Of a stretch of 64,000 bases of DNA, positions 5,676 to 44,310 are shown piece by piece; within the stretch, counting starts at the first letter, position 1, and each line of letters starts with the position of its first letter. Under the pieces are notes generated by a model. The model made no database searches. It had not been told where the DNA came from and saw only the letters and a program-made list of their open reading frames with translations. A program made the position numbers and the translations under genes. The stretch comes from Macrostomum lignano (taxonomy: Eukaryota). The stretch is from assembly GCA_002269645.1 (NCBI GenBank), contig NIVC01001695.1:31246-95245 (forward strand), read 5' to 3'.

Positions 5676-5681
5676 GTTGTG
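5676..5681. repeat. Left target-site duplication GTTGTG of the Polinton
   Basis: Identical hexamer immediately follows the right end (23772-23777). Confidence 0.95.
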
Positions 5682-6011
5682 AGTAGTAGGTATTTGTACG
5701 CTTCTAGCCGTAGACAAACTATTTAAAACAGCATTTTTTAGGCTTAGAGGGGGGACACGGGGAAAAAAAACACATTTAACACCCATCCAACACCCCCAAC
5801 ACTCCCAATAATCAAAAACACTATTAACACATCCAATCAAATCCCCGTGTCCCCCCTCTAAGCCTTAAAATGCTGTTTTAAATAGTTTGTCTACGGCTAG
5901 AAGCGTACAAATACCTACAAATACACACAAACACACACAAACACACACAAACACTCTATAACCCGTCGCACGCGCCGCAGGCGCGAAGGGTCTTTTTCTG
6001 TTACTAAAAAT
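5682..6011 (+). repeat. Left terminal inverted repeat with internal ~77-bp inverted repeat (5686-5763 / 5842-5918)
   Basis: Reverse complement of 23439-23771 with a few mismatches; the internal arms are visible by eye. Confidence 0.95.
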
Positions 6012-6324
6012 GAACCGAGTTTACAACTTTTCAGTAAGCGATACTTTTGAGACCGTTGCTAAAAATGCAGAGATAATAAAACAGCACATATTGAATGGAA
6101 TAATTGATGAAGTTTATTTAAAATACGACGACAAGCACGAACTAAAACTTTATTCTTTAGAGTTAGATGGTTTGTATGATTTAGAACAAGAGGGTGAGTT
6201 AATATTTCAACTTGGAGATTATTTAAATTCCGAGGATTGGGAGGTTAGGTCAACAGATTCCGAATCAACAAATAGTTCTTATGAAACTAGCGATTCAGAT
6301 AATCAAAGTGAAATTTTTATGTAA
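6010..6324 (+). CDS. Polinton acidic hypothetical protein, 104 aa
   Basis: ATG in AAAAATG context at the inner TIR edge; acidic Ser-rich C-terminus. Confidence 0.6.
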   Translation: MNRVYNFSVSDTFETVAKNAEIIKQHILNGIIDEVYLKYDDKHELKLYSLELDGLYDLEQEGELIFQLGDYLNSEDWEVRSTDSESTNSSYETSDSDNQSEIFM

Positions 6325-6467
6325 AAAATGGAACAATATTCAATGCGCTTGATTCAATAAAAAAATTAATAAAGGATAAAATAGGAGAATTAGATTATAT
6401 ATGGGATAATGGGGAGCAAACTCTTCTTCTAGCACAATGTTTAAATTGTGAAAAAATAAACTAGAAA

Positions 6468-6875
6468 ATGATCACCGATTATTCCAACGGGTTTGTAAAC
6501 GATTGCACCAACGGTTCAATACCAACGGGAGCATCTTTTTTATCTGATAAAGCCAAAGATAATAAAGTAAAATATGATAAGCATCCAAATGAAAAAAGCA
6601 TTGGTACAAATACTATAATTGCTATTATTATACTAATCTTACTTAGTTGGATTATTTTTCCCGCTTTATTTTTATCTAAAAAATTGAATATCACGGGAAT
6701 ACCATATAATGAAAAAAATATAACATCCGCAATATTATCCATAGTTATATCAAGCACATTATTATTATTAATTCCACTAATTTTATTTTTTAGTATAATA
6801 TCAGCCGTGCTTTATGCTAAATGTTGTGAACGAAAACAAGAACTCCCCGACTCATTAGAGGCATTTAAAGTATAA
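6468..6875 (+). CDS. Polinton two-TM membrane protein, 135 aa
   Basis: Two long hydrophobic helices (IIAIIILILLSWIIFPALFL; AILSIVISSTLLLLIPLILFFSIISAVLY); AAAATG start. Confidence 0.65.
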   Translation: MITDYSNGFVNDCTNGSIPTGASFLSDKAKDNKVKYDKHPNEKSIGTNTIIAIIILILLSWIIFPALFLSKKLNITGIPYNEKNITSAILSIVISSTLLLLIPLILFFSIISAVLYAKCCERKQELPDSLEAFKV

Positions 6876-6877
6876 AA

Positions 6878-8487
6878 TTAAACTAACATTAATTGGCTTT
6901 CATAAAACGAACCCAATATTTCTTCACCGTCTTTATCAGCAATGATATAGGTTGTAGGATTTGTATTTAAAACTTTACTGACAGTAAATTTTTCACTTAT
7001 TTTCCAATATCCTTTTCTTCCCTTTTCAAACTTATCTTTCCATTTATAGATATAAACAGAATCACCAACTTTAAAAGGTTTAGTTTTCTTTTTTTCGAAT
7101 TCTCCAAAAGTAACTTTAACTTTTTCAGGACTGTTATAAGCTTGTTGTGGAGTCATATTTATAGCCGAATGATATGAATTATCTATCACTACGTCTGGTA
7201 ATATTTTTACCCACTTTTGGTTACCATTAAGACTAAATTGAAACCACAATTTCTTACCTAAAGTTCGATTAAATCTTTCTATTAAAGCGTTTTTGCTTTC
7301 GCCATAAATAGAATAAATCTTATTAATATACTCCCCATTAGCGACTCCGTCCAGTCCTTTTTCCTTTCTTGTTCTTTTTCAAAATGATATAATTTATACA
7401 TATGTGGATTGTAAAATTCCTTTCCTTCATCAACACATAAACGTTCACTTTTTTCTCCAAGACTTCTAAAAGCAGAAGCAACCTCCTCTCCTTTTTTGGA
7501 TTTCAAAGGAACAGCCCACGCATATCGAGTAAAACCATCTAATATGGTTAAAATATATTTATATCCCTGATCGGACGGCATAGCCATTAAATCAGCATAC
7601 CAAATTTCATTCTTTTTAAAGTTCATGATCTTTCTGTAAAATTTCGGTTTTCGGTATTCTTTGTGAAGAATCTTTGCCTCATCAGAACTTAACCCACCAC
7701 CACTTAATAACAAACACTCAACACAATTATTTCCATGTTGGTTGTAATTAATTCCCAAACCAAATTTAACTTTAGACTGCAAAATCTTTTTAACCATCCA
7801 CCGAGTTAATCTTTGGCTTACCGACAATCCTTGCAGATTATCTAATCCTTCAATCATTTTTCTATCGGCTTCATGCTTTAATCTTAATGCTTCCTCAGGA
7901 GAGTTCTTATCAGCATCTCTGTATGCTAAGTCATGATAATATGCTAACCAATCAATACCGTTAATGGGAATTGAATCTGCTTTTGGAGTGTCATCAGGAT
8001 TTAATCTCAAATCCAAGCGAGTCCCGGGTAGTTTACCCTCAATCTTTCGATAGAGGCTGGAGCACACCTTAAGCGGCTAAATTACCGCCCATCTCCGTCT
8101 GCTCTCTGAACCTTCTCCATATCGGCCACCGGACGGACTTAGGAGCTTGGCTGCGCATTGCCACCTTGTCTTCAAGCTTATTACCTTTGGGAAGAGGAGT
8201 TACCTCTGTTCCTTCAAAAGATTTCTCAATTGAAGTGGTACTTGAAGCTGTATGACGGGTTTCACGCAATTTGAAGATGTCGCCACTAATAGTGACTAGC
8301 AAGGACATTGACTTCCTCACTCAGGCCACGGATAACCTGCAAAGTTCATTGATGGAAGGTGTAGTTCCCCAGTATATTTTCCAGTAGTAAATATTGGCGG
8401 TAAGCTTGTTAATCCTTTTTGAACATCCAACAATCCACCTTCAAACACAACATGTATGGAATTAATATCGTTTGTTTGAATCACCAT
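6878..8487 (-). CDS. int: PLA2-domain / retroviral-type (rve) integrase fusion. Exon 1 8487-8335, group I intron 8334-8029, exon 2 8028-6878 with one frameshift near 7350-7380
   Basis: Spliced product reads MVIQTND...GELHLPSMNFAG|PGTRLDLRL...PINGIDWLAYYHDLAY (PLA2 Ca-loop GPG and HD dyad). DDE motifs WYADL, LCVDEGKEF and, after the frameshift, GESKNALIERFNRTL. SH3-like C-terminus FKVGDSVYI. Confidence 0.9.
8029..8334 (-). ncRNA. ORF-less group I intron, IC1-like, 306 nt
   Basis: P1 CAGGU/GCCUG with U.G at the 5' splice site. P2 AGUGAGGA/UCCUUGCU. P3 CAUCUUC/GGAGAUG. P4 UGCGUG/UGCGCA. P5abc with A-rich bulge GGUAAUAAGCU and GAAA L5b. P6a receptor CCUAAG/UAUGG. P7 GAGCA/UGCUC. P8 GGCGGU/GCCGCU. 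P9 CCUC-UAUC-GAAA-GAUU-GAGG. P9.0 AG/CU. Removal restores NFAG-PGT in frame. Confidence 0.93.
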
Positions 8488-9037
8488 TTTTAATGGCCTT
8501 AAAAATACATGATATCACTAATTGTTTTGCAAATTCTTCAATAGTTGGTTGTTTAACCCTTTTTGAAATATTATCTGCAGCAGCTAAGTACCTTTTATTT
8601 CTCCACCACTCAGAACATCTAACTTGGTTTTCATCTATATAATCATATGAAGAAGCGGGAATAAAAGGATCAACATGTAACACACCAGTATAATCTTTTG
8701 TGATGTAATAATGTTTTGTGAAATTTAACCAATCAATAAAGAATTCTTTTGTGCAATCAAGATAGAAAATATAATCATAATCATTAAAAATAGTTAATTG
8801 ATTTTTTACTCTATTTCTAATTAATACAATAAGTTTGTAGTTTTCATCATTTTGGTATTTGTTTCTACGATATTTATTCCATTTATCTTTATTGTTTTTC
8901 ATCCAAAAACTACTACTATTATTATGACATAATCGACAATCATTTCTAAAATTTTTTGAATCATTTCTCCAAATAAAAAATTCTTTAGTCATTGGTTTTT
9001 CTTCATGGCACTTATTACAAATCTTTTTAGTTATCAT
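8462..9037 (-). CDS. Free-standing HNH-type (homing-endonuclease-like) protein with N-terminal CxxC...CxxC zinc finger, possibly inactivated
   Basis: KICNKCHEEK...NDCRLCH zinc finger, then LHVDPFIPASSYDY...C...WRN...LAAADNISK matching the HIDHIIP...N...DN..K pattern of large-DNA-virus HNH proteins; the expected His after Asp is Pro. Confidence 0.75.
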   Translation of the reverse strand: MITKKICNKCHEEKPMTKEFFIWRNDSKNFRNDCRLCHNNSSSFWMKNNKDKWNKYRRNKYQNDENYKLIVLIRNRVKNQLTIFNDYDYIFYLDCTKEFFIDWLNFTKHYYITKDYTGVLHVDPFIPASSYDYIDENQVRCSEWWRNKRYLAAADNISKRVKQPTIEEFAKQLVISCIFKAIKNGDSNKRY

Positions 9038-9060
9038 TTTATAAAAAATAAATTTAACAA

Positions 9061-9744
9061 TTAAAGTCCAGTATGTCCGGCAGCTTTGGCAGCGGCTAAA
9101 ACAAGTTTTCGAGGAGTTTTTAAACCATCCCCAACAGCCCTTTTGTTTCTTATAGATTGATCGATATGCTTATACAAACTGGTGTTTTTAATAGCTCTAT
9201 CACCCAAATCAATATTATAAAATTTTTTAGCACTTATTAATTCATTCCGAGTATATAAATCAGGATTAAACTTTACTTTAGGCCTTGTAACAATATTAAA
9301 TGCTCCACCCAACTCTTTATATAATTCATCCCGACTTTTTTCAACCCTAGTACCAATTCGAAAATTGTCATTACCTAAATCTATCGCAGCAATACTTTGT
9401 GGCGCAGCTCTTGGAAATTGCTCAATATCACCACGACGTTCCGCAGCTCTAATCTCTGCAACTCTAAATTGTGCTTGAGCCACATTATAAGTAGGCGGTT
9501 CATCCTCCACAATTTCATCCTCTTTTGGCTCCGTATTCTTTGCAATTTTTTCAAGAAGTTCTTTATCAGTTTTTGTTAATTAACTAATTTTCCCCGTAAT
9601 AGGATTAATAAAAGGAGCAGCAAATTTTTCACCGGCTAGCTGTACTCCCAGCTTTCTTTTTTGTAAATCTCTAACAAAATCAGAATATCTTTGCTTCTCT
9701 TTATAAATCGCCAACTCCCCATCAACGTCCATAAACTGACTCAT
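9061..9744 (-). pseudogene. Polinton conserved/core protein (~227 aa) with premature TAA at 9580-9582
   Basis: AAAAAATG start at 9744, in frame with ORF 9061-9510 across one stop; C-terminal GDG-L site and LVLAAAKAAGHTGL tail. Confidence 0.6.
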
Positions 9745-9778
9745 TTTTTAACATAAAAAACTTTTTTAACCTATAAAA

Positions 9779-11259
9779 ATGGCCGAGACAAAAACCATTT
9801 GGAGTGATAAATTTCATTTCAAAAAACAACGACAGTATATTAATGAGGTCAGATCAAGAGATTTAAATTATACCCAACCAACAAGCGATAATTCAAATAA
9901 CTTTACAACGGGAACAGTAACTTTTGACATTGGTGCAACCACCAGCATATTGGATATGAAACATGCGTTTTTCCGAGTTAGGTGGTTGTATACCAGAAAT
10001 GATGGAACAGCCCTTACAGCTCCTGATATAGATGACAGAGCCGGCATTATTATAGAAAATGATTGGTTTTATAAATGTTTTTCCCAAGCACAACTAACCA
10101 TTAACGGAGCCGAGGTTGAGACGGTTACAAACCCAGCAGAGATTAATGGAGTTTTGAAACATTTAAATTATACATATTTATCAAAACAGGTTGGTGATAA
10201 CGTTGGATGGATGCCCGATAAGGGAGATGGTGGAGCAATAAATTTTCCCAATGTAGCACCAGCAGCCGGCGCAGATACCGCAGCTCTTATTAATTATTTA
10301 AATAATAATATAGTTCCGGTTGTAACAACCCTAACCAACACCAAAAATATGAACACCGGTTTTATAGACCGTCAGAATAAATTCCCAGTCGCGGTTTTAA
10401 CCACCGCAACCGCTTATGAGCAAGACTTTCAATCTTTCCACTATTTGGGTTCTTCTCACCAAATCGGGTATGGAAGGGATTAAAATTTGGGGTACGGTTG
10501 CAAATATCTAGTGGATATCTGCCCCGGATACTTTTTGGAAATTCAACCTCAACCGATATTGCAGTTCGAATTGTTTCGATTCAATTAGTTGTGCCAACTA
10601 TCGAGTTAACTGCTCCGCTTTTAAAACATATTGATGATCAGATAATGTTAGACCAGGATATATTTTATTTGAATCGCCGCCACTTTATGCGAACCATTAA
10701 TAACAATCAGGATTCATTCCAGTGGCAAATCTTACAAACAAAACGTCGGGTGAGGTATATTTTTATTTGGTTTAAAATATCAAACAGAAATAGCAAAAGA
10801 GGAAACTGTGATTTATATTGGCTTCAATCTGATGCCGTAGCAGCACAGGCAGCCACCGCAAGTGATAACGCGCTTTCGGCGATTAACGCATTTAATCTCC
10901 AGAATATCCGACTGCAGGTTGATGATCAATATTATCCTGTTAAAAGCCCGCTTAATCTAAATGTTGGAAATAATGATGTTAATGATTTTATAAAATATTA
11001 TCAGGATTACGTCAAAAACGAAGCCTACGCCATTCCTCAATATACACCCACAGAGTTTCTAAACATTCACCCCGTGGTTGTTTTTGATCTAACAGCACAG
11101 AAAGAAAATGTAGCCAATGTTGGTTTGAATTATATGTTGGAGATTAATAAAACCGGAAATCAGGCAGTAGACGCTCACGCATTGTTTCTAGAGGAATATA
11201 TGGCAATTGCTAAACCCGACGGCACCGTTGTTCAGGACGTCCCCATAGGAAAAAATTAG
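9779..11259 (+). CDS. Major capsid protein (double jelly-roll, hexon-like), one frameshift near 10430
   Basis: Two abutting ORFs join via IFPLFGFFSPNRVWKGLKFGVRLQI. Size ~490 aa, beta-rich, FSQAQLTINGAEVE and IRLQVDDQYYP segments, located directly upstream of ATPase and penton. Confidence 0.85.
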
Positions 11260-11278
11260 TTAAATTATTTCCTTAAAA

Positions 11279-12046
11279 ATGGTAAAGCCAAAACATAATA
11301 AAATATTTCCCAACGACCCTTTTCTTTTTTTGGTTGTTGGAGGATCAGGTAAAGGAAAAACACACTTTGTTTATGACTTATTAACAACTTATAAAATGTT
11401 AGATTATAATAATTTAATAATATATACAAACAAACCTAGAATAAAATATTATGAATTTCTTAAACATGGATTAAAAAACAAATTAAAAAAAGATATCTTG
11501 TTTAGAATGTTAAGAGCATATGAGCAATATGAGGACGACGATGAACCAAAATTCAAACTTTGTGACATTGAGGGTTTATGTAGAGAAACTGCGCAGCATC
11601 CAGAAAACGTCGACAACAACTCCCCAACGATCCAAATATCAAACAGATTAACCTATGATCAAATCCCAAAAGATGATAAAACACTAATTGTATTTGATGA
11701 TTGTATTAATGATGGTGATCAAAAGTTGCAAAAAGAAATTTTTGTTAGCGGTAGAGGAGATGGAATTGGAGCTTTTTATCTCACTCAATCCTTTAGAGAA
11801 TTAGATTCAATTATAAAAAAGAATGCAAGTTGTTGTGTAATGTTTGATCTAGATAACTACGATTTACAAAGTATACATGCGAGATTTAACCCAGGTTTAG
11901 ATCCAAAACCATTCAAAAGCATGTGTAAAAAAATTTGGGATGACAACCAATACAAACACATATATATCAACCCTAGGTTAGAAAGGAGAAATAGAATCTT
12001 ACAAAATTTGATACACGAGGAGGAGGAAGAGGAGGAAAAGGAATAA
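11279..12046 (+). CDS. A32/FtsK-like DNA packaging ATPase
   Basis: Walker A GGSGKGKT, Walker B LIVFDD, GRG motif, FYLTQSF. Confidence 0.93.
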   Translation: MVKPKHNKIFPNDPFLFLVVGGSGKGKTHFVYDLLTTYKMLDYNNLIIYTNKPRIKYYEFLKHGLKNKLKKDILFRMLRAYEQYEDDDEPKFKLCDIEGLCRETAQHPENVDNNSPTIQISNRLTYDQIPKDDKTLIVFDDCINDGDQKLQKEIFVSGRGDGIGAFYLTQSFRELDSIIKKNASCCVMFDLDNYDLQSIHARFNPGLDPKPFKSMCKKIWDDNQYKHIYINPRLERRNRILQNLIHEEEEEEEKE

Positions 12047-12093
12047 TCGCCCCGAAGGGTCGCGTACCTTTGGTACGATTCCCACCTATAAAA

Positions 12094-12879
12094 ATGGCAG
12101 TGAACCTCGATACAATAAAACAAGTGGTTGATAGAACCAACTCAAAATTTAGTACAACCCTACAATTTGTAATGACTAGCAGCGAGCAAAGGATTCAATT
12201 ACGTAACCCACTAACTCTTGATCAGACATTAAGTTATGAAATTGGTTTAATAATGTATTCAGTTTTTAACATGCCTCAATTGATTAATGCAACAAACAAT
12301 CAATTTAGATATTCTAAAGATTCAGGAGCAAATTGGACAACTATTACTATAACACCCGGCGCATATAACTATACTGATTTGAATACCGTAATGCAAGCTG
12401 AGTTAACAGATAATGGTGATTGGGTAGCAGACGCAATTGTTATAGGAGTTGATTTACCATCAGGCAGATTCACACTTACATTAGCGGCCGGTTATCAGGT
12501 TGATTTTACAATTGCCAATTCACTTAGAACCATATTAGGATTTAATTCCCGAATCGTTACCGCATCAACCACGGGCGATACCGTGGGAAATATTGAAGGC
12601 GGAGTCAACACAATTAATATTGCAACCGATATTTCAAATGGTGGTTATATAACAGATGATAACGGATTTTTGGTTCAGCGCGGAATTATATATTCAATTC
12701 CATTTCTAGCGGTTCCAATTGGAGATAAAATGATAGTTGCACCTCAAACCCCAATATATTACCCATTAAATCAATATAATTTACAATCAATTTTTATAAG
12801 AGTTGTAGATGATTCGGATCGACTAATAAGTTTTGGTGGACAAGCAATAACAATAATTTTAAGAATAAAACAGGTTTAG
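12094..12879 (+). CDS. Minor capsid protein (penton-like single jelly-roll)
   Basis: TATAAAAATG start; ITITPGAYNYTDLN, INIATDIS and IFIRVVDDSDRLISFGGQAITIILRI resemble Polinton minor-capsid patterns. Confidence 0.85.
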   Translation: MAVNLDTIKQVVDRTNSKFSTTLQFVMTSSEQRIQLRNPLTLDQTLSYEIGLIMYSVFNMPQLINATNNQFRYSKDSGANWTTITITPGAYNYTDLNTVMQAELTDNGDWVADAIVIGVDLPSGRFTLTLAAGYQVDFTIANSLRTILGFNSRIVTASTTGDTVGNIEGGVNTINIATDISNGGYITDDNGFLVQRGIIYSIPFLAVPIGDKMIVAPQTPIYYPLNQYNLQSIFIRVVDDSDRLISFGGQAITIILRIKQV

Positions 12880-12889
12880 AATCTTAAAA

Positions 12890-13498
12890 ATGGGTAATAA
12901 TAACGCTTTAAAAAAACAAATGGTAAAAGTTCAAAAAGCAAAAGATAATTATGAAATCGAATTAACAAAATTGAAACATCTACAAGCGGAAAAAATCAGG
13001 CGGGAAATATTACAACCCACAGATAAGAAACTAACAAAAACAAAGAGTTTTCAGAAGCATAAAATGACTATGAGCTGGAATGAGTTCAAACAAAGATATG
13101 GAACGGATGCAACAAGTAATATTGAATTAACAAATTGGGCGAGACAATTAAAAATAAAACCGTTCAGATGTGTTATGCGCGATGAGATAAAAGACTTACA
13201 ACAATATGGATCTTTCATTGTCAATATTGAAACGACAAAATAAAATGGTGTACATTGGTCAGCAGTTTATTCAAAACCCAAACTCGTTTATTTTTTTGAT
13301 TCATATGCCCTTCCTCCATTGCAGGAAATAAAAGACAAATTTAACCACACTAAAAATCGATTATGTGGAGATTATCACGAACAATTTCAAACCTTTGATA
13401 AAAGTTATTGTGGGCAGGCGGCGTTGTATTTTTTATATAGAATCGAACAAAGTTCGCGTACCCCAGAGGATTTTAAAAACATATTGGATTCATTTTAA
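12890..13498 (+). pseudogene. Adenain-like cysteine protease, premature TAA at 13241-13243 (alternative start 13064)
   Basis: In-frame continuation past the stop gives NGVHWSAVY, YFFDSYALPP and QFQTFDKSYCGQAALYFL (His/Asp/Gln/Cys motifs). Confidence 0.88.
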
Positions 13499-13521
13499 TA
13501 TGGTAAAAATAGACTCTGAAA

Positions 13522-15511
13522 ATGTTATTTAGTGGAACACCCTCATGGAATGGAACTTCAAGTACTGGTGGTGGCGGATCAAGTGGAGGAATCAGTGTTA
13601 CATTTGGAGACAACCGATATATAAATGAAGATGAAGGATATAAAAAAACAGAAATAGATAATAAATTAAATTTAAAACGGAATGTTGCAGATTCCATACC
13701 AAAACTCAAGTCGATAATTCATTAAATTTAAAACGCAATACCGCCGATTCCTGTAGCAAGACGGATATTGATAATTCATTAAATTTAAAACGGAATATAT
13801 TAGATTCTTATAGTCAAGCCGAAGTTGATTCCGAACTTAATTTGAAACGGAATGTGGCAGATTCATATACAAAAACGGAGGTTGATAACTCATTAAACTT
13901 GAAAAGAGACATAACCGATTCTTATTCCCGAACAGATTCTGATTCGCGTTATGTTCAAACCACCGCAACCGGCACCTTAGATATGAGTAACAATCGAATT
14001 ATAAATGTTTCAATTACAACAAACAACTCGGTAGTCGATAAGAACTATGTTGATAATCAAATTGGTACTCGTACTGGTAATATAAATATGAATAATTTTA
14101 AATTAACAAATTTGTTATTTGGAACAGAGGACACGGATTCAGTCAATCTCGAGCAAGTAAATGCACGAGCAAATATAACCGATGATGATATTTTTAACAC
14201 GCCTCTTACATCAAATACTTCAAATCCCGATGTTATTCTTACAGCTTCTGAAAATAACAATGAAGCTTTTCGAGTTGGTGACGGAAGTCTTGCAACACAA
14301 TGGTCACCAAATACCGGTACCACAACCAATATGGAAATTAATTTGAGTTTTTAGGCTATAATCGAAGAATAAATGAATTAAGAGTTACGGGCAGCCCAAC
14401 AATTGATATCCCATCGGGATGGTCGGTGCGTGCAAAAAATGTTGCTACAGACGCGTGGACTGTATTACGAACATCATCCTCACCAATTCAAGCAACTTCA
14501 TTAGCATTAACTAATTTAACAGTTAATTTTTGGAAATATTATAGCGTTTTATTCCCAACCGGTGGGACAGTTACACAACCTATTGAAGTTCGTCTAATTC
14601 AATTATTTGAACACCGAGTTGAAGTTCAAGATCTCAATTGGCCAAATCAAGTACTTTCTGCCACTCCGCGTGCATATGTAGATCAATTAGCAACCCCAAC
14701 TTCAAATGGTAGAATGTCTGCTGGTGATAAAAATAAATTAGATGGAATTCCTGCAATTGATGCCGCATTATTCGAGCCAGTAATTTGCAATTGGACTGGA
14801 TATCAAAATCCAACAACCGCCGGAGATATATATCCAGTGGGAACTTTAATTGGTGACGCCACATATGTTGATTATCAAAACGGAGCTAGAATAACTCGCG
14901 AAACCGCTGGAGTAAGTGGCGCTTTACAATTTAATTTTACACATTTTCAAAACATTGCTGCGTCCTTCTTTTTCCGAGTTGCTAATAGTGGTGGGGATGG
15001 TGCGGATGCAGTTTGGTTTTATGCATATTGTCATGAACGACCTACTAGTGAATTTGGTAGTAGTTTAACAACCGACGCTGGTCTGATAGTGTTTGCTAGT
15101 GAATGGACAGATCGGTTTGGTGTGGTTTGGAGTAATAAAAAAGCAGATGGAACCACAGTTCGTAATGATGTTCAAAATGACGCCGACCAAACAGTAACCT
15201 ACGCTAATATTGATAATGACGATTGGCATCTTTTTGAAATTAATATTATTAATCAAAGAGTTTGGTATCAATTAAGGTCATACAATTTTTCAACTAAAGC
15301 ATATACACTAATTGGGAAAAATGTTTTTACATATGATAGTGGAACTTGGGGAACTTTAGATAAATCTGGAACTCTTATGGGTTTTGGTGCACGAACCTGA
15401 GGAGCGGATGCTGCACATTTTATTCGAGGCGCTGCTGTTTGTGGTAGCACATCTGCGGGATATAATTTTGCTGCCAGTGCATATCTGGAAGAGCCGCCGG
15501 TAGCAATATAA
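13522..15511 (+). pseudogene. Putative virion fibre / receptor-binding protein (~660 aa): 19-aa repeats, discoidin-like and L-lectin-like domains; two frameshifts and one TGA
   Basis: Five YxKTEVDNxLNLKRNxxDS repeats (~13640-13950), NINMNNFKLTNL stalk motif, F5/8C-like AFRVGDGSLATQWSP...RINELRV, GRMSAGDKNKLDGI, and lectin-like GGDGADAVWF and GFGART(G)GA..HFI. Confidence 0.65.
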
Positions 15512-15527
15512 AATATTGTTATATAAA

Positions 15528-15857
15528 ATGGCTTTTAGTAGAACTCCATCAATGCGACAATGCAATAATATTGTTATTCCGATTCCCAAACAAGAATCAA
15601 ATATAAAAACTTTTAAATCTCATACCAAAATTTTATTTAGCGGAGTGAATGTTCAAGACAATAAGAAACTTCAGGAATTAATTAAATTATTAAAAACCCA
15701 TATTATATTACAGGAGTTTTGGAAGGTTGGATTTAAATGGGAGAAAAAAGAAAGAATAACTCCAATCCAATACTTATTGAGCGCTGGACAGATTCCTAAG
15801 GAGCGTGGGGAATTCATTTTGGTGTTATTAAAAATAGACGAAAATTTCGGTGTCTGA
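15528..15857 (+). CDS. Polinton hypothetical protein
   Basis: TATAAAATG start, ~109 aa, overlaps the next gene. Confidence 0.55.
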   Translation: MAFSRTPSMRQCNNIVIPIPKQESNIKTFKSHTKILFSGVNVQDNKKLQELIKLLKTHIILQEFWKVGFKWEKKERITPIQYLLSAGQIPKERGEFILVLLKIDENFGV

Positions 15858-16494
15858 AGCAGACAGAAAAGAGCGCGACCTATTTAACCAACGTAAAGGG
15901 CGCATGTTAAGTAATGTCGATCGAATTAATTATGATTATGATTTATATACCAAAAAAGTAAGAAGGCTTTCAAACCATATCAGGAATATGGATTTTTTCA
16001 ATATTGGTTTTGGAAGTTTATCGATGTTGTGTGTGATCGTTTTAGGTATTTTACAATCCATTCCAACTCTTAATTTATCTCAATTATTTTTGGGTATTTC
16101 AATTGGTTCAATATCAGGTTTTGAATTAATAAGAAACTTATCAATACTTTTGGCAATTAAATTATATCTTAAAAAAAGAAAGGATAAATATAAATCACTA
16201 AGAGATGTTGCTAAACAATATAAAAATCAGTTATATTTATATGTGCAAAAAATATTAGATGATGGTGAGATTACAATACATGAGTTAACAACCGCGGTTG
16301 AGTTATATGATAAGTATTTAAAAGATAGAAATAGAATTTTAGATATTGAAGCTTTTACCGATATGGAATTGAAAGAATTGCGTTTGGACGCCCCCAAACC
16401 TCCGCCTATAGAAACTATAGAATACAAGTCCGAAGTTATGGCTGATGGGGTACAAAGCCCGCGATCAGGTAGCACTATAGAACTTCAGGTCTGA
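15850..16494 (+). CDS. Polinton two-TM protein with helical C-terminal domain
   Basis: Hydrophobic hairpin FFNIGFGSLSMLCVIVLGIL / LFLGISIGSISGFELIRNLSILLAI followed by ILDDGEITIHEL. Confidence 0.7.
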   Translation: MSEADRKERDLFNQRKGRMLSNVDRINYDYDLYTKKVRRLSNHIRNMDFFNIGFGSLSMLCVIVLGILQSIPTLNLSQLFLGISIGSISGFELIRNLSILLAIKLYLKKRKDKYKSLRDVAKQYKNQLYLYVQKILDDGEITIHELTTAVELYDKYLKDRNRILDIEAFTDMELKELRLDAPKPPPIETIEYKSEVMADGVQSPRSGSTIELQV

Positions 16495-16550
16495 CTTAGT
16501 CAGCGAACCTTGGTTCGGTGGTGTAATTTATTAAAAATATATTCTAAAAA

Positions 16551-16835
16551 ATGGATCAAGGAATAATACATAAAGTTAAAGTTAAAGATAAAATCCTTTT
16601 TAAAATGTATTCTGTCCAAGATATAAATATATATACTAAAACTTCTAAAAAATATGGGTGGCCGTGTTATATTTTTGGAACTTATTTAATTATTAATTAT
16701 ATAAAAAACCTACTTGCTCTTCCAAAAAGAAGAATGCCGGAGTATATCCAAGACGAATTCGATGCGCGTAAAGCTACATCTGATATTAAAAGTGTGGAAA
16801 TAATTAATTTAGAGAGTTTAAGAAATTCTATGTAG
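16551..16835 (+). CDS. Polinton hypothetical protein, 94 aa
   Basis: AAAAAATG start, ORF track. Confidence 0.5.
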   Translation: MDQGIIHKVKVKDKILFKMYSVQDINIYTKTSKKYGWPCYIFGTYLIINYIKNLLALPKRRMPEYIQDEFDARKATSDIKSVEIINLESLRNSM

Positions 16836-17080
16836 ACCCATCTGTAGCTTTTTTAATGCATAAGTTATATATTCTTCCCACAATGGTAATTGCCTTTTGA
16901 TTCGTGGTTCGAATTTTTTATCAATACATAAAAATTCCAATGACTTTTTCAATAACATTTCGCTTGGGATGTTGCCCAGTCTTATATGTTTTGTGTTCTC
17001 TCTCATAAGAAAATTGAAATAATATTCAACCAGAGTTAAAATCCTCTCGGCGTCTTTCGAACTTAATCCTTTTCCTTTAT

Positions 17081-17356
17081 TTAAATGAAAAAAGTTATTA
17101 TATAAATAAACAGTATTTCCGGGGATGGTATTAATTTGTGTGCCGTCTGGCTTTGAAGGGATGGATGTGAAATGTCACATGATAAATTTCTTATAATTGT
17201 GTTTTTGAAATAGTAATATGAGTTTTCAATCTTTTTTGTTTTTTCAAATTGATATATCTTAGCGCATGAATAACACATGTGGTATATTTCTCCATTTGCT
17301 GTTTGACCTCTCTGCATAGTAACATTACATTTTTTACATTCATATCTGTCTTTCAT
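17081..17356 (-). CDS. Small zinc-ribbon protein
   Basis: YECKKC...MCYSC CxxC pairs; AAAAAATG start. Confidence 0.55.
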   Translation of the reverse strand: MKDRYECKKCNVTMQRGQTANGEIYHMCYSCAKIYQFEKTKKIENSYYYFKNTIIRNLSCDISHPSLQSQTAHKLIPSPEILFIYIITFFI

Positions 17357-17382
17357 TTTTTTGTTATTTTTTTAGACTAAAA

Positions 17383-17712
17383 ATGGAAAAAGAAAATCGG
17401 TTCAAAACTGATTCTAATGCAATTAATTTTCTAACCACCAATTCTCTGGAACCAAAGGAGTATGATATAATATGTTTGCGACAGGTTAAATTTATTGGAA
17501 TTCAATCGATATTTTTACAATTAAACGGGGGAGTCGTTCTGTGCTTAAGTGGTGATGATGCTAAAAATTTTCCAACAATTGTTATAAATAAACCTAAAAC
17601 TTTTATTATGAAATACTCACGAATGGATGGTTTGCAATTTAAAGAAAGACAAGCAAAAAACAAAAAGGTTGATAGGACTGTAAAATTAGCCGCTGTTTGG
17701 GAGGAAGACTAA
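17383..17712 (+). CDS. Polinton hypothetical protein, 109 aa
   Basis: CTAAAAATG start, ORF track. Confidence 0.5.
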   Translation: MEKENRFKTDSNAINFLTTNSLEPKEYDIICLRQVKFIGIQSIFLQLNGGVVLCLSGDDAKNFPTIVINKPKTFIMKYSRMDGLQFKERQAKNKKVDRTVKLAAVWEED

Positions 17713-17727
17713 ATTTTTTATAAGAAA

Positions 17728-18084
17728 ATGGCGAGCGTAAAAAACCTTCTGTGCACTCACAATAAAGAAATGAATGATATTAATAAAAAATTAAATATAA
17801 TTAACGAACAGAAATATAGTGATTATGGCGACGATATGTTTCCGATTCGATATGAATTAGAAAAAAGAAAGCGTTTTATTATAAAAGCAATTGCTTATGC
17901 TGAAACTATTATTGAACAAGAGATCGACCGTCTTGTTAGACGAATAAAAATACTTCGAAAAAAAGTAAAAGAGTGTTTAAGTTACCCTGCCGATTGTGAA
18001 GATAATTGGTGTTCAATAAAATATGAAATGGAAATGGATATTCTACTTAAGGAATTACATGCTTTAGTTTTTTGCCGTTATTAG
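17728..18084 (+). CDS. Polinton helical hypothetical protein, 118 aa
   Basis: AAAATG start; converges on the pPolB 3' end. Confidence 0.5.
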   Translation: MASVKNLLCTHNKEMNDINKKLNIINEQKYSDYGDDMFPIRYELEKRKRFIIKAIAYAETIIEQEIDRLVRRIKILRKKVKECLSYPADCEDNWCSIKYEMEMDILLKELHALVFCRY

Positions 18085-21000
18085 TTTTTCCGTTAATCTC
18101 TTCCAGTTATCCAAGACTTGTTCCTTTTTTAATTTTTTAAATTCTTTTGGAAATGTTGCATAATAATTTTCTATGTCTTTTTCATATTCTAGATATGTAT
18201 TATATTCATATTCACATTCGATCGGAAACCGCGTTCCGATGGAAAGATCGTCCTCGCAATCACAATCGTAATGGTGATTATTTATTGACTCTTTGTATTC
18301 TTTATATCTGCTTATTAAATACTCATCTTGTTTTTTATCTTTTATCATGTTTTTAATTTCTTCTTTTAAACCATATGGATATGTTTTAATTTTATTATCT
18401 AAATACCTTTTATCATCAAATGGGCTTAATGTTTTTTTTATCAGTCTCAATAACAAACATCTGATGATTATCTGAATTTAATCGATATTGTGGAGCATGA
18501 TATTTTTCAATTGTACGAGTATTAAGGGATTATTAATCATTAATCTAATAATGCGTTTTTATAATCAACAAAAGTTATCTTTTTAACTGCTGCCCTTGAT
18601 ACTCCTTTTTTTTACCTCTCCCTCCTGTCCTAAAACCTTAAATGCATAACATTTTGATCTTATTGCTATAAACTCGGTTATGATTTTGCTATTTAATTCA
18701 TCTTTCATTTTAAGTACAACTTTCTTATTTTTATCAGATTTTAGAGGATGTTTATCCGGATAATCAGAGGTGTCCAATGTATCCTTAATTGTTTCCATAT
18801 CTTTATAGACGTCCTCAGTTTCAACCTTAAATACCAAACTGTCGGTGTCTGCATATATTGGATAGTTATCTGGCCAAGTTTTATTTATAACATCATAATA
18901 GTATTCATACATTACTAGCTTTGCATAATCTAAAACAACCATTCCAATAAAGATTGGTTTAAGAAATTTTGTTTTTTATTGCGCATATGTATTCCCATAA
19001 ATTCATCATCAAATTTTATAAAGTCTTTAAAGTTAGGTTTGGTCAAATATTTCTTTGCTTTTTCAATATCCTTTTCTAAATGGAATTGGGTTCTATCTCT
19101 AATATTTTCAACCGTTTTTCCATAAAATGCATTATTCATTAATTTCCAATAATCTTTCTCAAAAGTTGTTTTTGCCATCTGTCTCTGATTTGAATTAAAA
19201 TCAATATATTTAGCTAACCAATCTTCTTCTATAAATGATATTGTTCGATGTACTTTGGTTACTTTTAGTCCTTGCTTTTCATAAAATTGTAGAAGCTTAT
19301 AATGCACTACATAGTTTTTCTTATCAAATAAATTTAGAATTAGCTTCTTTGTTGCTAGATGTTTTGAATTATCTGCTTTAAGATAATCTTTTTGTGTTTG
19401 TGATAAATCATCTTCATTAACTGAACAATGCTCTGGAGCTAGAGGATATTTATATGTTGCTGCTTTTGCTTGCCGAGTATATTTTAAATCTACTTTCACT
19501 ATGCATCCCCTTCCTTTGGGAATGTTTTTATAATAATTGGGATTGTATTCCCACCGGAAATCGGTAATTGGTAATTTTTGTTTCATACAGCCTCCATATA
19601 AATTGTTTGCATCTAGATATAATACATATGATGATTTTTCTTTTTTATTATAATTAGGTAGATACTTATTATTTACTTTAGTATATCTATCTCCTAGTAC
19701 CCCTGAGAATCCCCCGCGAATTCCACGCTCAATCATTAACAACATATCATGATCAGTTAGTAAATCAATTTTTACATCTGTATGTTTTAACCCGCATGCC
19801 CATGTTAATCCGGGTGCACTGAAACAATAGGCTGGATCAATTTTAAACTTCTCGTATGTATGATTCCTAAAGTTTTCAAACGCATCAGCTAACAGGAGAA
19901 CATCTGCTTTAAGATATAGGTTATGATAATCTTTAAAAGTTTTACAATCAAAGTATTTCCATACTTTTTGTGCATGTTCATAATCCGATTCGGATATGTT
20001 AGATTGTGATAATATTGAATAAAACTTTTCGATTGGGGGTAGTTGAGTATCATTAAATACCTTTTCAGATGTTTCATATTCATATGGATAAACGCCCTTG
20101 CGAGTTAATAGTATTAGTTCTTCCTCGGATAGTTTTTCCTTTTTAAATTTATTTAATAGTATTGGAAAGTTTTTCTTTATTGTTTCTAAGTCCCATGGTT
20201 TTGGAACTAATGATGAAACAACATTCGCTAGGGAGGTTGATAAGAATCTCAAGGAGTCTAGAAAAACCAGATGGGAATATTTTTTACCATATGTTATTGA
20301 TATGTAATTTTCTGATGTTTTTGGTAAAATATTTACTTCATATTCATCCTTACCTAAGTGTAGTAATTCTCGAACAAGGAAATGACAATCATAGCCAGAA
20401 CCATTATGAAAAAATACTGGTATTTCCTTATATCCTTTTCCTTCTTTTGTGTGACATGATCTACATGCTGCCCCGCGATAAATTCCTGTTAGATAACAAT
20501 GCTCTTTTATCTTATTCTTATCACTTAATTCCATTTGACATAGAAAACAATTTGTTGCATTCTTATGGTTATATTTTTCTTTTTCTGTCATAATAATATA
20601 TTTTGATAATTTACAATATTGATTTTGAATATATTTTAAATACATTAACCAATGATTCTACCATATGTTTCGCCGAGTCCATACCATGATAAGTAATTAT
20701 CTTTGATTTAAAAATATGATCTGCTGCAGAATGTACATATATAGAATAACTATTTGGATACTGTTGTGCCAATTTTTTTGTGCAGTCGCCCTGAAGGGTC
20801 GCGGACTCCGTCCGGTCACCCAATGGAACATTGGTTGCTTCAAAATCAGCATATATTACAATTGATTTTTTAATTGACATATAATGTTGTTGGAACTTTA
20901 AGATTTTATCTTCACCATATGGCATTAAAACCTTAGTAAATTTATGATCTAAACAAAATATTTGATGCTTTTTAAGAGCTGTTTCATCCCTTTTAAATGT

Positions 21001-22034
21001 GAAACAGTTTCTACATAATTGCATTCTATTTCCATTTTCTCTTAAAAAAGAGCTAATATCTTTTATGTATATATAATGTGTTTCATTTCCGCGCTGCATA
21101 TACAAAAGGTCGATTTGATCTGGTGCTGTTATATCAGTTGCTGGCTTTACTAAATAACATCTTTTTTTATACCAATCTTTATCGCCAATTGGAATTTCTT
21201 CTGGCTCTTCAATTGTAAATACATTAATATTTAATCCATTCATTTTTTTCAATCTTATATATATCATCAATGGCTACTGGGTATGATATGTTTTTCATTA
21301 TTATTTCATCCTCATATTTTCTATAATTATATATTTCATTAACATGGGATTTTACTTGTTCATGATATTTATGAATTAATAAACACCATAATAAACACTT
21401 ATTATCTTTATTGTCTGGATTTATAATCATTGGTGATTTAAAGCCGAGGTTCATATAAGATCGTTCTCTAAGAATTTCTATGGGTACAATCTTTACTGTG
21501 GCTGAATTACAGGATACAAATATAAACCCTGATCCATTTTCTGTCATCTTATCTATCCATTCATCAAACTCTGCTTCTATTTGATCAAATTGATTGTCGT
21601 AATTTCTCATTGATAGGAGTCTTATATGATTCTTGTGAAAAGTTATTTATTACTTCAATTTCTGAATTTGCATTAATCATATTTGGTTTTTTAAATTCTG
21701 TTTCAATTTCTATTTTATACTTAATTGGCTGTCGTTTGTTATTTGATCTTTTAGTATATCTATCTAGGATGGTCTTTAATTTTGGTTTCATTTGTTTAAA
21801 ATATTCTTTATAATCAGTATTTATTTCAATATCTATATTTATTACTTCAGCTCCATTTTGTCTTTGTGGTTGAGGTTTATCAATATCATTTAATTGTCTT
21901 TCTAAACGCATCTCATTTTCTGCTCTGACTCTAGCTTCTATTTCCGCCCTATTGGCCATTCGTTGTGCTTCTATTTGAGCTATTAATTGTGCTCTAAGTT
22001 CTGGGTTGTCGATTTGGGCTAAAATAGCTTCCAT
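18064..22034 (-). pseudogene. polB: Protein-primed family B DNA polymerase (pPolB), ~1300 aa, split by about six frameshifts
   Basis: Exo I VIYADFE, Exo II VFFHNGSGYDCHF, Exo III YLKADVLLLAD, Pol A YLDANNLYG, Pol B KLMNNAFYGK, Pol C YADTDSL, C-terminal LSPFDDKRY, internal C/H zinc motif CFLC...HC...ACRSCH. Confidence 0.95.
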
Positions 22035-22064
22035 TTTATAGAATAAAATTTATACAATGTTTAC

Positions 22065-23018
22065 CTACTCGAGTTCCGCTTTTGGTAAAATTAATTCACT
22101 GCCTGAGACATTTGCATTTAAGATGATGCCTGATCCAGCTTTTGGTCTCATTTCAAGATATAAACCGCTTCCGTCGTGCTTTTCAATTATGTTAAAATCT
22201 TTTCCTAATTTGTTAAAAATCTTCTGAACAGCTGGCCTAAAATTGGCTCCGATATTGTCAAAAAATCCTTTAGCTTTTTCACCCGTTTTTTTTAAGGTTT
22301 GACCAAACTCATGTAATTTATCTGCTACAACTCCGCTTCCGTGGGTTTTTCCTTGTAAGATTAAACCCTTTCCAGCTGCTAACCTAGCTTCTGCATTTCT
22401 TTTTTGTTCTGCTGTTGCCGAGCTACTATTAATGGTATCGATCAGTTTTTGTTTAAATTGAGCATCCTGTGTTATTTGCTGTCTTTGGAATTCAGCCTCT
22501 CGTTTGGCTTTTTCATCCGCAGCTTTTTTGTCATTTACTGCTTTTGCAATTCCAGCCGCTCCACCTGCTACTCCACCAGCTGCTCCGATTCCCGCAAAAA
22601 TTATTGGGAGCAAAGTTGCAAGTGGAAGTATACCCCCCTGTTTTAATTTTAATTCTCCTAGCTGTTTTCGATTATCGTGAATTCTTTTGGCTGCTAAACC
22701 GGTTGCTCCAGCTGCTCCGAGTCCTAAAAGAATTGGTAGAATGGGCAATAATCCACCATCCTTTTTAGTGTGAGTCTCCAATAAAAATTTCACATCAGAT
22801 TCTGTTAACCTATAATTTTTATCATTATTCTTAAATGAAACTGGCCTTCCTTCTTGTGCATATTTTGCAGCAAGTTTAAAAGTATCAAAATTATAATCCA
22901 ATTTTTTACCTAATCGATCTAATCTTTTTAACATTGTGTGACTGTGTTTACTATCATCCAAGTTTAAGGTGTCTACTATTTCTCCTATAAAATATAACCG
23001 ATCGTTGTCCGAGTCCAT
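22065..23018 (-). CDS. Virion core/maturation protein with two adenovirus pX-like GG-(L/I)LP hydrophobic repeats
   Basis: KDGG-LLPILPILLGLGAAG and KQGG-ILPLATLLPIIFAGIGAAGG resemble adenovirus pX GG-FLPALIPIIAAAIG; several GSG-hydrophobic sites. Confidence 0.7.
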   Translation of the reverse strand: MDSDNDRLYFIGEIVDTLNLDDSKHSHTMLKRLDRLGKKLDYNFDTFKLAAKYAQEGRPVSFKNNDKNYRLTESDVKFLLETHTKKDGGLLPILPILLGLGAAGATGLAAKRIHDNRKQLGELKLKQGGILPLATLLPIIFAGIGAAGGVAGGAAGIAKAVNDKKAADEKAKREAEFQRQQITQDAQFKQKLIDTINSSSATAEQKRNAEARLAAGKGLILQGKTHGSGVVADKLHEFGQTLKKTGEKAKGFFDNIGANFRPAVQKIFNKLGKDFNIIEKHDGSGLYLEMRPKAGSGIILNANVSGSELILPKAELE

Positions 23019-23028
23019 TTTTATATTA

Positions 23029-23430
23029 CTAAAACTTCTTTAATCCTTTTCCGCCTTTAATGCTAGTTAATACTTTATTAAAATCTTGGATATCTTTATT
23101 ACTTATTGGGTTGCTTTTAGTGGCTGTTTCAGTAGGTTGTGCGGCTTCTTGTGCTAATTTTAAATCTTTTATTGCTTTTATTTGTGAGAGGGTGTCGTTA
23201 AATTCTCTCAATTTTTTAAGTTCCTCAGCTGCCCTAGCCGCTTCTATTCCACCCTTTACCGCATTGGTTATAGAGCCTGCTGTCGAGCCTGCTTGTCCTA
23301 TCAAGCCCATATTATCTTTAACCAAATTTGCTGCTGATCCTATCATATCAAAAAGACCCTCACCTCGGTATTCAACTGGGTCTCCTACTTGCAATTCATT
23401 CAGATTGGATAGTTGGGTAACATGTGTCAT
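23029..23430 (-). CDS. Small virion protein with amphipathic helix after GEG-LF
   Basis: YRGEG-LFDMIGSAANLVKDNMGLIGQAGS; C-terminal GGKG-LKKF; starts next to the right TIR. Confidence 0.6.
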   Translation of the reverse strand: MTHVTQLSNLNELQVGDPVEYRGEGLFDMIGSAANLVKDNMGLIGQAGSTAGSITNAVKGGIEAARAAEELKKLREFNDTLSQIKAIKDLKLAQEAAQPTETATKSNPISNKDIQDFNKVLTSIKGGKGLKKF

Positions 23431-23438
23431 TTTTGTCT

Positions 23439-23771
23439 ATTTTTAGTAACAGAAAAAGACCTTCGCGCCTGCGGCGCGTGCGACGGGTTATAGAGTGTTT
23501 GTGTGTGTTTGTGCGTGTTTGTGTTTTTGTAGGTATTTGTACGCTTCTAGCCGTAGACAAACTATTTAAAACAGCATTTTAAGGCTTAGAGGGGGGACAC
23601 GGGGATTTGATTGGATGTGTTAATAATGTTTTTGATTATTGGGAGTGTTGGGGGTGTTGGATGGGTGCTAAATGTGTTTTTTTGATTTCCCCCCCGTGTC
23701 CCCCCTCTAAGCCTTAAAATGCTGTTTTAAATAGTTTGTCTACGGCTAGAAGCGTACAAATACCTACTACT
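23439..23771 (-). repeat. Right terminal inverted repeat with internal inverted repeat (23529-23604 / 23692-23767)
   Basis: Reverse complement of 5682-6011. Confidence 0.95.
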
Positions 23772-23777
23772 GTTGTG
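23772..23777. repeat. Right target-site duplication GTTGTG
   Basis: Matches 5676-5681. Confidence 0.95.
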
Positions 23778-43400: not shown

Positions 43401-44310
43401 GGTGGGTGGCAAAGGACGGAATTTGGGGTTGGGCAGTAGCCAGTGAAGAAATCTGGGGTGGTGTGTGGCGAGGGAAGGAATTTGGCGGTGGTGGGTGGCG
43501 AGAGGCGAAATTTGGGGTAGGTGGCGGCGAGAGGGACAGAATTGGAGGGTGGTGGGTGGCGAGAGACGAAATTTGGGGCTGGGTGGCAGTGAGGGACGGA
43601 ATTGGGGGTGGGTGGCGAGGGACAGGTGGATGGCGAGAGGTATGAAATTAGTGGGTGAGTGGATCTATAACTTCTCGCTAAACTAATCTATAGAGAATCT
43701 TTAACTTTGCACATGGGGTGTTAGTTTTATTAACTTCAGTCAGATCCAGAAGATTTACTGTGGAGTTTATAAATAAGTTCACACTAGACACCGTCTGAAA
43801 CTTGATTTGCATTAACGCTGCAGACTAGAGTACGCGTACACAATTTGGTTGACAAAAGTGCTTGACTTTATTAGCATTCATTAGTAAAGGCAACTAGATA
43901 GAATCAAATGGATATTATACACCACTGCTAATATGGGCCGGCTCTACACTGATAATCACTTAGGTAAATAGCTCCGAATGAATCAATGAATGAATGGTTA
44001 ATTAGCTTGACACACAACAAGCGGCATTTTCTTCTTACCGCCGGCTACTTTTGGCTTTGCTTTCTCGCCAGGATTTGACAGTTTGCTGCGGCGGCGGCTG
44101 CTGAGCTGCTGCGGCGGTGCTGGCAGACCGCTGCTGCCGCATACCAGAGCTGAAGCTGGGCATCTGGATGGCGACAGCTTCCGCGTCTGCCGCCAGGCCG
44201 GTCACTGCAGAGGCGGCCGAACTTGTTGGTCGCAGGTTGCCGAAGAATCGGCCACTGCCGGACAGCAGACGCCTCGGCCAGGCGGCCGACTCGCTGCCTT
44301 GGGTTGTCAT
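40444..44310 (-). CDS. kcnj: Inward-rectifier potassium channel (Kir/KCNJ family). Exons 44310-44039, 43150-42757, 42128-41584, 40885-40444
   Basis: RLVFKNGECNI, DIFTTLVDIKWR, LFSIETQHTIGYG filter, GLVFAKLSRPKKRAETLMFS, FELIVILEG, TTQARSSY; in-frame GT-AG junctions. Confidence 0.95.
41000..41480. repeat. G/A-rich minisatellite (ggggcacagtgagaggcacagggaga)
   Basis: Intronic tandem array. Confidence 0.9.
42150..42730. repeat. 21-bp minisatellite (gggattcgatgggaatagaat)
   Basis: About 27 copies, intronic. Confidence 0.95.
43200..43630. repeat. Degenerate G-rich minisatellite
   Basis: ttggggtggtgggtggcgag-like units, intronic. Confidence 0.75.

Follow-up and report, generated by a model that had tools for sequence, protein, structure and literature searches.

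Flatworm Polintons with a group I intron in their PLA2-integrase gene, and the predicted link of this intron to a restriction-type nuclease

Several described systems share traits with the locus analyzed here. Three protists have endogenous Polinton-like viruses whose protein genes contain introns of about 300-380 nt matching the Rfam model RF00028, for which the available parts of the report give 51 Intron_gpI rows in Table S11 and per-species numbers in the text that do not sum to 51 (PMC12220804). The hexacoral ND5-717, which interrupts a protein gene of an animal, is a group I intron with a terminal A; the sections available describe a terminal G as near-universal and catalytic in group I introns, and the A-ending ND5-717 of sea anemone mitochondria as accurately spliced (PMC8146996). 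I-Ssp6803I, in the portions of the two reports at hand, combines a PD-(D/E)xK restriction-enzyme fold with a coding position inside a group I intron (PMC3384342, PMC3943268). Collaborative homing is known from phages (PMC11296320, 10.64898/2026.10.13.758929); a free-standing nuclease beside an ORF-less intron targets the intron-less allele, an arrangement proposed as the precursor of intron-encoded nucleases (PMC11296320). Adintoviruses and animal Polintons carry an integrase, an ATPase, a capsid-like gene, a parvovirus-type PLA2 and pX-like domains, and the accessible text of that study uses the word intron only once, in an unrelated sense (PMC8502044).

We analyzed a stretch of 64,000 nt from Macrostomum lignano (assembly GCA_002269645.1, contig NIVC01001695.1, positions 31,246 to 95,245), hereafter the window. 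A first-pass annotation had proposed that a Polinton integrated into the nuclear genome of a bilaterian carries a group I intron inside one of its protein-coding genes, and our results support this. Its description of the intron as a complete self-splicing type is too strong, because the terminal base is A here and in most of the family. The accompanying statement that no such intron had been reported from a Polinton does not hold for the Polinton-like viruses of protists (PMC12220804); for an animal Polinton or an animal nuclear gene, we found no report of a group I intron in the literature searched, which included few subscription papers and did not extend to Repbase or Dfam annotations. Term searches of the main texts of PMC8502044, PMC11131425, PMC11957031 and 10.1101/2023.08.22.554363, as far as these were available, gave no such intron in animal elements. 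No report of an Eco47II-type nuclease in an intron was found in the literature searched, within the same bounds. The first-pass annotation overlooked the terminal A, the multi-copy state, the presence of three intron types at one site, the nuclease link and the site avoidance, all of which are described below.

The host element and its interrupted gene

The Polinton and the flanking host gene lie as follows.

5676..5681, plus strand: 6-bp target-site duplication GTTGTG, left copy (the right one is at 23772-23777)
5682..23771, no strand assigned: Polinton of 18,090 bp with AGTAGTAG...CTACTACT ends and terminal inverted repeats; A32 ATPase, capsid-like and pX-like genes and polymerase-like pieces; without GGNCC
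41580..43647, minus strand: exons of a host inward-rectifier potassium channel (Pfam IRK and IRK_C; 100% identity to an M. lignano protein)

Terminal inverted repeats, AG..CT ends and a 6-bp target duplication, which are hallmarks of Polintons, are all present. Pfam matches on the element include an rve integrase (E 1.3e-7) and Pox_A32 (E 4.6e-7), and a pX-like protein is also encoded. The capsid-like protein is close in Atlas features to double-jelly-roll clusters (0.96), a lead only, and polymerase-like motifs were seen by eye in pieces at 18064-21646, in which Pfam gave no polymerase match. The integrase, capsid and polymerase frames are broken in the window copy. Within the terminal repeats (5673-5996 and 23453-23771) there is an internal inverted segment with 76-nt perfect arms, resembling flip-flop ends.

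Contig identity, which the first-pass annotation had suggested confirming through flanking host genes, was confirmed by a potassium-channel exon that is 100% identical over the whole exon to an NCBI Macrostomum lignano protein; its next-best relatives are from molluscs, nemerteans and annelids. A flatworm host exon and a target duplication on one contig thus indicate bilaterian nuclear sequence with a properly integrated Polinton. The window also holds a LINE at 34521-39948 (plus strand) with endonuclease, reverse transcriptase and RNase H, a hexokinase-like host exon or retrocopy at 49332-50198 (plus strand), and an LTR retroelement at 54238-62830 (plus strand) with a frame of 2086 codons. 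This retroelement has an unusual gene order, with a long, Thr-rich, envelope-like stretch placed after the gag zinc knuckle and before the protease.

The interrupted gene encodes a parvovirus-type PLA2 fused to an rve integrase. Its exons and the parts of the intron are listed in the direction of the gene.

8335..8487, minus strand: exon 1 of the PLA2-integrase gene, ending in a Gly codon; pN/pS 0.30 over the last 108 nt (18 in-frame omega-A haplotypes)
8029..8334, minus strand: group I intron, IC1-like, ORF-less, 306 nt; RF00028 at 61.4 bits, empty-allele junctions, covariation
8322..8331, minus strand: internal guide sequence, forming P1 (U.G pair at the 5' splice site) and P10; U.G in 53/53
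8282..8296, minus strand: P2.1 hairpin; in the sister family its loop is the Eco47II-like nuclease gene, L032:1799-2293 (minus strand)
8167..8251, minus strand: P5abc domain with A-rich bulge and GAAA loop; two-sided P5a, P5b and P5c changes between families
8059..8106, minus strand: P7 (8106-8100 with 8064-8059), which contains the G-C guanosine-binding pair and encloses P8; G-C in 51/53, three two-sided changes versus the sister family
8029..8029, minus strand: terminal intron base, A replacing the usual omega-G; by direct reading, with 85 A-ending versus 18 G-ending places
6878..8028, minus strand: exon 2, beginning with a Pro codon, PLA2 and then rve integrase; frame broken near 7282-7378 in the window copy

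The insert runs from 8334 to 8029 on the minus strand and is 306 nt long, as first described, and is richer in G+C (~48% vs 33% for the element) with an in-frame TGA at intron nt 16-18 (ORF 8317-8514). Both junctions left by its exact removal are fixed by natural intron-less alleles (L061, L072 and L085), which make up three of the 30 loci fetched with the downstream exon and in which the Gly codon is directly followed by the Pro codon. The insertion point is the conserved Gly-Pro of the PLA2 calcium-loop motif. The PLA2 domain PF08398 is matched at E 0.0018 in the window copy and at 8.8e-9 on the intron-less L061.

A permissive Rfam scan of window positions 7900-8460, a comparison that had also been proposed at first pass, matched RF00028 over the full model at 61.4 bits (cut-off 50, E 3.4e-15). 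The standard scan of the whole window in gathering mode returned no matches and missed the intron, and counts of introns of this kind in animal genomes may therefore be too low. Among nine loci scanned permissively, two of the seven with an intron were detected, which indicates that scan filters lose such introns.

The helices that had been paired by eye (P1 with U.G, P2, P2.1, P3, P4, P5abc, P6, P7, P8, P9.0 and P9) all pair, including P7 as GAGCA/UGCUC in the window copy, and P10 forms five of its six pairs with one fixed mismatch that is present in 53/53 distinct copies. IC1-type features are seen in the intron by inspection and covariation; P2 with P2.1, and P5abc with its A-rich bulge and GAAA loop, are what we take to be features of subgroup IC1. 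Our alignment contains 53 distinct sequences from 74 loci with both ends (26 A-ending, five G-ending and 22 of the sister family). Pairing is kept in 97.9% of 2390 cells among the 26 distinct omega-A copies with P10 excluded, compared with 39.5-46.6% in a control with partners slid by 1-2 columns, a lenient control since the structure was drawn from the window copy. Two-sided changes between families affect eight pairs, one each in P3, P4, P5a, P5b and P5c and three in P7, and among omega-A copies they occur in P2, P3, P6b and P9. The U.G pair at the 5' splice site is present in all 53 distinct copies and the G-C guanosine-binding pair of P7 in 51 of them. Among omega-A copies, variability is not lower in paired columns (38/184) than in unpaired columns (31/122; P 0.33). 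The minimum-free-energy fold is by itself not significant (z -1.12).

Since the empty alleles fix both splice sites, the last intron base at 8029 is an A instead of the catalytic G. Exact patterns over the genome give 85 places that end in A (control 0) and 18 that end in G (control 1). A-ending and G-ending copies are interspersed on the intron tree, in which few nodes are well supported. As an omega-A variant, the window copy has a known precedent in ND5-717.

Sequence signs of use come from the flanking exons. The end of exon 1 has a pN/pS of 0.30 among omega-A copies (18 of 21 haplotypes in frame), and the PLA2 stretch that precedes the first internal Met, in the first 159 nt of exon 2, has a pN/pS of 0.07 (omega-A; 18/23 haplotypes). 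Joint translation of this stretch with exon 1 requires removal of the intron. Exons with synonymous divergence of up to 0.40 carry introns 98-99% identical to each other. The low pN/pS and the mosaic exons fit splicing and lateral spread; if the intron is a recent arrival, however, the low pN/pS may be older than the intron, and the mosaic exons could stem from ordinary recombination. No intron-skipping joint was found in contigs of X1, X6, X9 (guessed RNA) and X16 against L022:1000-2400 at 88% likeness, which is uninformative as contigs drop rare forms; diverged empty alleles known from the genome likewise gave no joint in the X16 contigs. Loose ends at L022:1539 show three continuations after P2. 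One matches the nuclease-bearing sister family, and the two others (108 and 138 nt) suggest more intron variants with other P2.1 inserts.

Intron copies and the nuclease gene

Introns of the window type have 217 candidate places in the genome, of which 40 were scored, and 26 empty Gly-Pro alleles were found by exact pattern, three of them in the window's Polinton family. All counts refer to places within a single assembly, among which there may be duplicated haplotypes, and these places need not be independent insertions. A genome-wide search with RF00028 gave 28 scored matches (72.7-91 bits), all in a sister Polinton family. Its introns share the same junction, are 836-895 nt long and end in G at 28/28 loci, and the shared 5' end of the nuclease-bearing intron is found at 27 of the 28.

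Three intron types occur at one site: the window type, the sister-family type and a third with a core whose motifs we take to be IE-like. The third type uses the same 5' site (L083, L087 with the 3' end only, and L089-L094; RF00028 30-32 bits, E ~5e-6) and occupies about 23 places, an inferred count. IE-like and IC1-like introns have P2, P2.1 and P5abc in common, 78-97% identical over 63-158 nt, so the ribozymes look mosaic. The last 12 nt of the IE-like intron in L089-L094 contain Pro-Gly codons inside the intron 3' end, two bases before the last G (7/7 full copies). Of two candidate 3' splice sites, one yields an in-frame product without Pro-Gly and the other leads to a stop; both CGGGU stretches can be matched by the guide sequence, making a two-step reaction conceivable.

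In the sister family the P2.1 loop carries an ORF with a match to Pfam RE_Eco47II (PF09553, E 1.4e-5) over its first 165 residues; the score of 25.2 bits lies just under the cut-off of 25.9, while relatives score 34-50 bits. An AlphaFold model of the nuclease (pLDDT 88) has EcoO109I as its best structural match (Z 9.8, rmsd 4.0, 162 aligned), followed by a next-best match at Z 7.2. A search of solved-structure sequences with an alignment of the nuclease gave nothing useful, and a viral fold library gave no match at E 0.001 or better. The PD-(D/E)xK residues E49, D65, E76 and K78 are kept in 15/15 in-frame copies and dN/dS is 0.10-0.28. EcoO109I recognizes RGGNCCY (PMC12944874, in the part available), and GGNCC has been assigned "without certainty" to an Eco47II homolog (PMC10305163, likewise). 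We rejected a strict RGGNCCY specificity, as every GGNCC form is absent from the element. Homology and site avoidance together predict that the nuclease cuts GGNCC, and we regard this as likely.

The genome contains 112 matches to the nuclease. A second class, ~65% identical, is free-standing directly upstream of the PLA2-integrase gene in part of the window's family (29/103 intron places), where it replaces a putative HNH-type gene; the window's own copy is without the nuclease.

8462..9040, minus strand: upstream gene slot with a putative HNH-type gene; no Pfam HNH match, Eco47II-like gene here in other copies

The motif of the gene at 8462..9040 is presumably of HNH type. Across 60 family loci, this slot holds an HNH-type or an Eco47II-like gene and never both in the loci read, as in an exchangeable nuclease cassette.

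The nearest nuclease relatives with DNA context are at 20 viral and two metagenome loci, including seven that are named as giant-virus assemblies. The neighbors of the viral relatives are C5 methylases in four of four cases tested, and a cluster of group I motifs was found at 0 of the 22 loci. On the nuclease-bearing contigs of the worm no match to a partner methylase was found, and one viral C5 methylase used as a query gave only three exon-split loci in the worm genome, on other contigs, which are host genes. In other data sets, seven protein clusters have the nuclease reading into the same intron core, so that the pairing is not confined to the M. lignano genome. These read-through proteins (P0001, the P0002 cluster, P0003, P0007, P0032, P0033 and P0037, from ENA, JGI and Logan) account for 19 of 181, and three further pattern matches were judged spurious. 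The P0002 cluster has 30 members, contigs of up to 65 kb and truncated copies, like another endogenous family. In viral contigs, no locus was found when the nuclease, P0014 or P0032 served as query, and the PLA2 exon found two weak loci, both without intron motifs. Three phage matches from an intron-pattern search were judged to be due to chance.

GGNCC avoidance, proposed mechanism and alternatives

Avoidance of GGNCC was predicted in writing ahead of counting. The 18.1-kb element contains no GGNCC, with 10.1 expected under a Markov model (Poisson 4e-5), making it the lowest of all 256 XY-N-ZW patterns. Synonymous shuffling gives an expectation of 6.8 and codon-order shuffling 16.1, with zero reached in 0/1000 each. 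Controls from the same window have observed/expected counts of 71/64.7 (LINE), 12/15.4 (LTR element), and 27/21.4 and 13/16.3 (host DNA), none of them depleted. CCNGG is also low in 5682-23771 (8 vs 17.9), perhaps as a trace of a second nuclease.

Gly-Pro is absent from the 5363 codons of the element, with 8.6 expected. As this codon pair always spells GGNCC, the junction of an empty allele is itself a GGNCC. The three intron-less loci each contain exactly one GGNCC in 3.3 kb, at the junction (3/3), and the predicted site that the intron splits is present in 26/26 empty alleles, by construction of the pattern. A nuclease gene lies within 25 kb of none of the 26 empty alleles and within 1.5 kb of 36 of 126 intron alleles (Fisher P 0.0006), based on 80 nuclease places typed from the 112 rows with extra pieces of broken copies excluded. 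The same test restricted to the three empty alleles of the window's family is without power (P 0.56).

The explanation that we favor, somewhat more readily than its denial, is a mobile group I intron at the PLA2 Gly|Pro junction, with a short-site nuclease driving homing or competition and a ribozyme that keeps Gly-Pro without the site. An outside guanosine bound in P7 would cut at the P1 U.G and two transesterifications would splice the transcript, with exon ligation tolerating the terminal A as in sea-anemone ND5-717; that guanosine-initiated splicing has this tolerance seems to us rather likely. The nuclease would derive from a restriction-modification pair of a giant virus, as a type II restriction enzyme that came without its methylase and cuts GGNCC. 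Elements would be self-protected by a purge of GGNCC, with one essential Gly-Pro as the last site, which the intron would split in DNA and splicing would restore as Gly-Pro in RNA. During joint replication, nuclease carriers would cut intron-less elements at this single site, and the cut elements would be converted by repair (homing) or lost; we consider homing moderately probable in such conversion or elimination of empty elements. The ORF-less intron of the window would be an immunity allele, movable by the nuclease in trans.

This explanation is consistent with the GGNCC at the junction, its avoidance, the conservation of the nuclease, the low pN/pS and the near-identical introns in diverged exons. 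Against it stand the scarcity of CCNGG alongside that of GGNCC, and the persistence of empty alleles (23 of 26), in most of which Pro is preceded by GGC, a misfit with the U.G pair of the intron. The normal GGNCC frequency of the host genome also counts against it, since the nuclease should then be toxic in a healthy nucleus and would have to act only in productive replication or away from host chromatin. More tentatively, and as something possible rather than probable, a methylase-less restriction enzyme may have become the homing endonuclease of an A-ending ribozyme intron in an animal DNA virus, with the GGNCC purge making it a rare cutter and the intron splicing mRNA in a bilaterian nucleus. 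If true, intron-encoded, free-standing and ORF-less stages would stand side by side in one genome, together with an IE-like core with the same peripheral domains.

The terminal A could instead mean that the omega-A lineage has lost splicing, its members being non-autonomous passengers amplified by helpers and their intron only a shield of the DNA from the nuclease. A near-universal and catalytic terminal G (PMC8146996, available sections) would agree with this, as would the broken integrase, capsid and polymerase frames of the window copy and unspliced sequence across both splice sites in guessed-RNA contigs (X1 records 3 and 4, which may be DNA). We nevertheless think such a loss unlikely, because omega-A copies are the majority (85 vs 18) and mix with G-ending ones on the tree, show two-sided changes in P2, P3, P6b and P9 and in many cases keep an open exon 2 of ~400 codons, and because the omega-A ND5-717 is reported to be accurately spliced (PMC8146996, same sections). 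It also seems rather improbable that the nuclease is not a homing enzyme and serves as a weapon against host DNA, a helper giant virus or rival elements, with GGNCC loss as self-protection and the intron spreading by hitch-hiking and recombination and retained as cover for the last site. The frequent free-standing position of the nuclease (29/103 places of the window's family), its giant-virus restriction-enzyme relatives and the long sites read by known homing endonucleases (PMC3943268, in part) would suit a weapon. The gene inside the sister-family intron (shared 5' end at 27/28 loci), the seven outside protein clusters that run from the nuclease into the same intron core and an insertion point that coincides with the predicted nuclease site would not.

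Group I introns in protist Polinton-like viruses (PMC12220804, as available) and nuclease relatives in aquatic giant viruses raise another possibility, that the introns were functional only in a protist or alga that once hosted the elements, which then brought them into the worm lineage, the ribozyme never being needed in animal cells. This would be distinctly unlikely, given that over 100 places carry integrated copies, with a clean target duplication, clusters of near-identical sequence and haplotypes that have diverged, all of which point to repeated recent insertion in the worm genome. Removal of the insert by the spliceosome, a chance structure or a chimeric or non-animal contig is largely refuted. 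A GT does lie two bases ahead of the junction, yet by direct reading no AG after the last in-frame stop yields an in-frame GT-AG intron, the eight pairs with two-sided change between families argue against chance, and the contig itself, which has both a target duplication and a flatworm host gene, argues against a chimera.

Comparison with known systems

Homing endonuclease recognition sites are long, often over 20 bp, and site avoidance instead of a long target would offer a simple route from restriction enzyme to homing endonuclease. A hidden last site would likewise provide a selective reason for keeping a self-splicing intron. The locus would extend group I introns to protein-coding genes of a bilaterian nuclear genome, and in a laboratory flatworm splicing is directly testable. 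Naturally occurring, near-identical ribozymes with A and G ends may also prove useful for asking how essential the terminal G is. What looks new is the host niche, an A-ending nuclear ribozyme family and what is probably a short-site restriction enzyme directed at the intron insertion site.

The protist elements differ in their hosts (Rhodomonas, Paulinella and Desmodesmus) and in the intron-bearing gene, a short ORF upstream of the capsid gene, and the available parts of that report describe no nuclease, empty allele or omega-A (PMC12220804). ND5-717 is mitochondrial, obligatory and vertically inherited according to the sections at hand, whereas the flatworm intron is nuclear/viral and optional, with A and G ends mixed (PMC8146996). 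In adintoviruses the PLA2 is fused to pX, as far as the accessible text goes, and in the flatworm element to the integrase (PMC8502044). I-Ssp6803I, in the portions available, reads a 23-bp site in cyanobacteria, while the flatworm enzyme has a predicted 5-bp site that would be made unique by avoidance (PMC3384342, PMC3943268). The Eco47II-like restriction-modification pairs of giant viruses have a nuclease 28-37% identical to that of the flatworm; they differ in their C5 methylase partner and in their position outside introns (no group I motif cluster at 22/22 loci). Compared with collaborative homing in phages, the virus here is eukaryotic, its sister families between them show both arrangements of the nuclease, and the enzyme is of restriction type.
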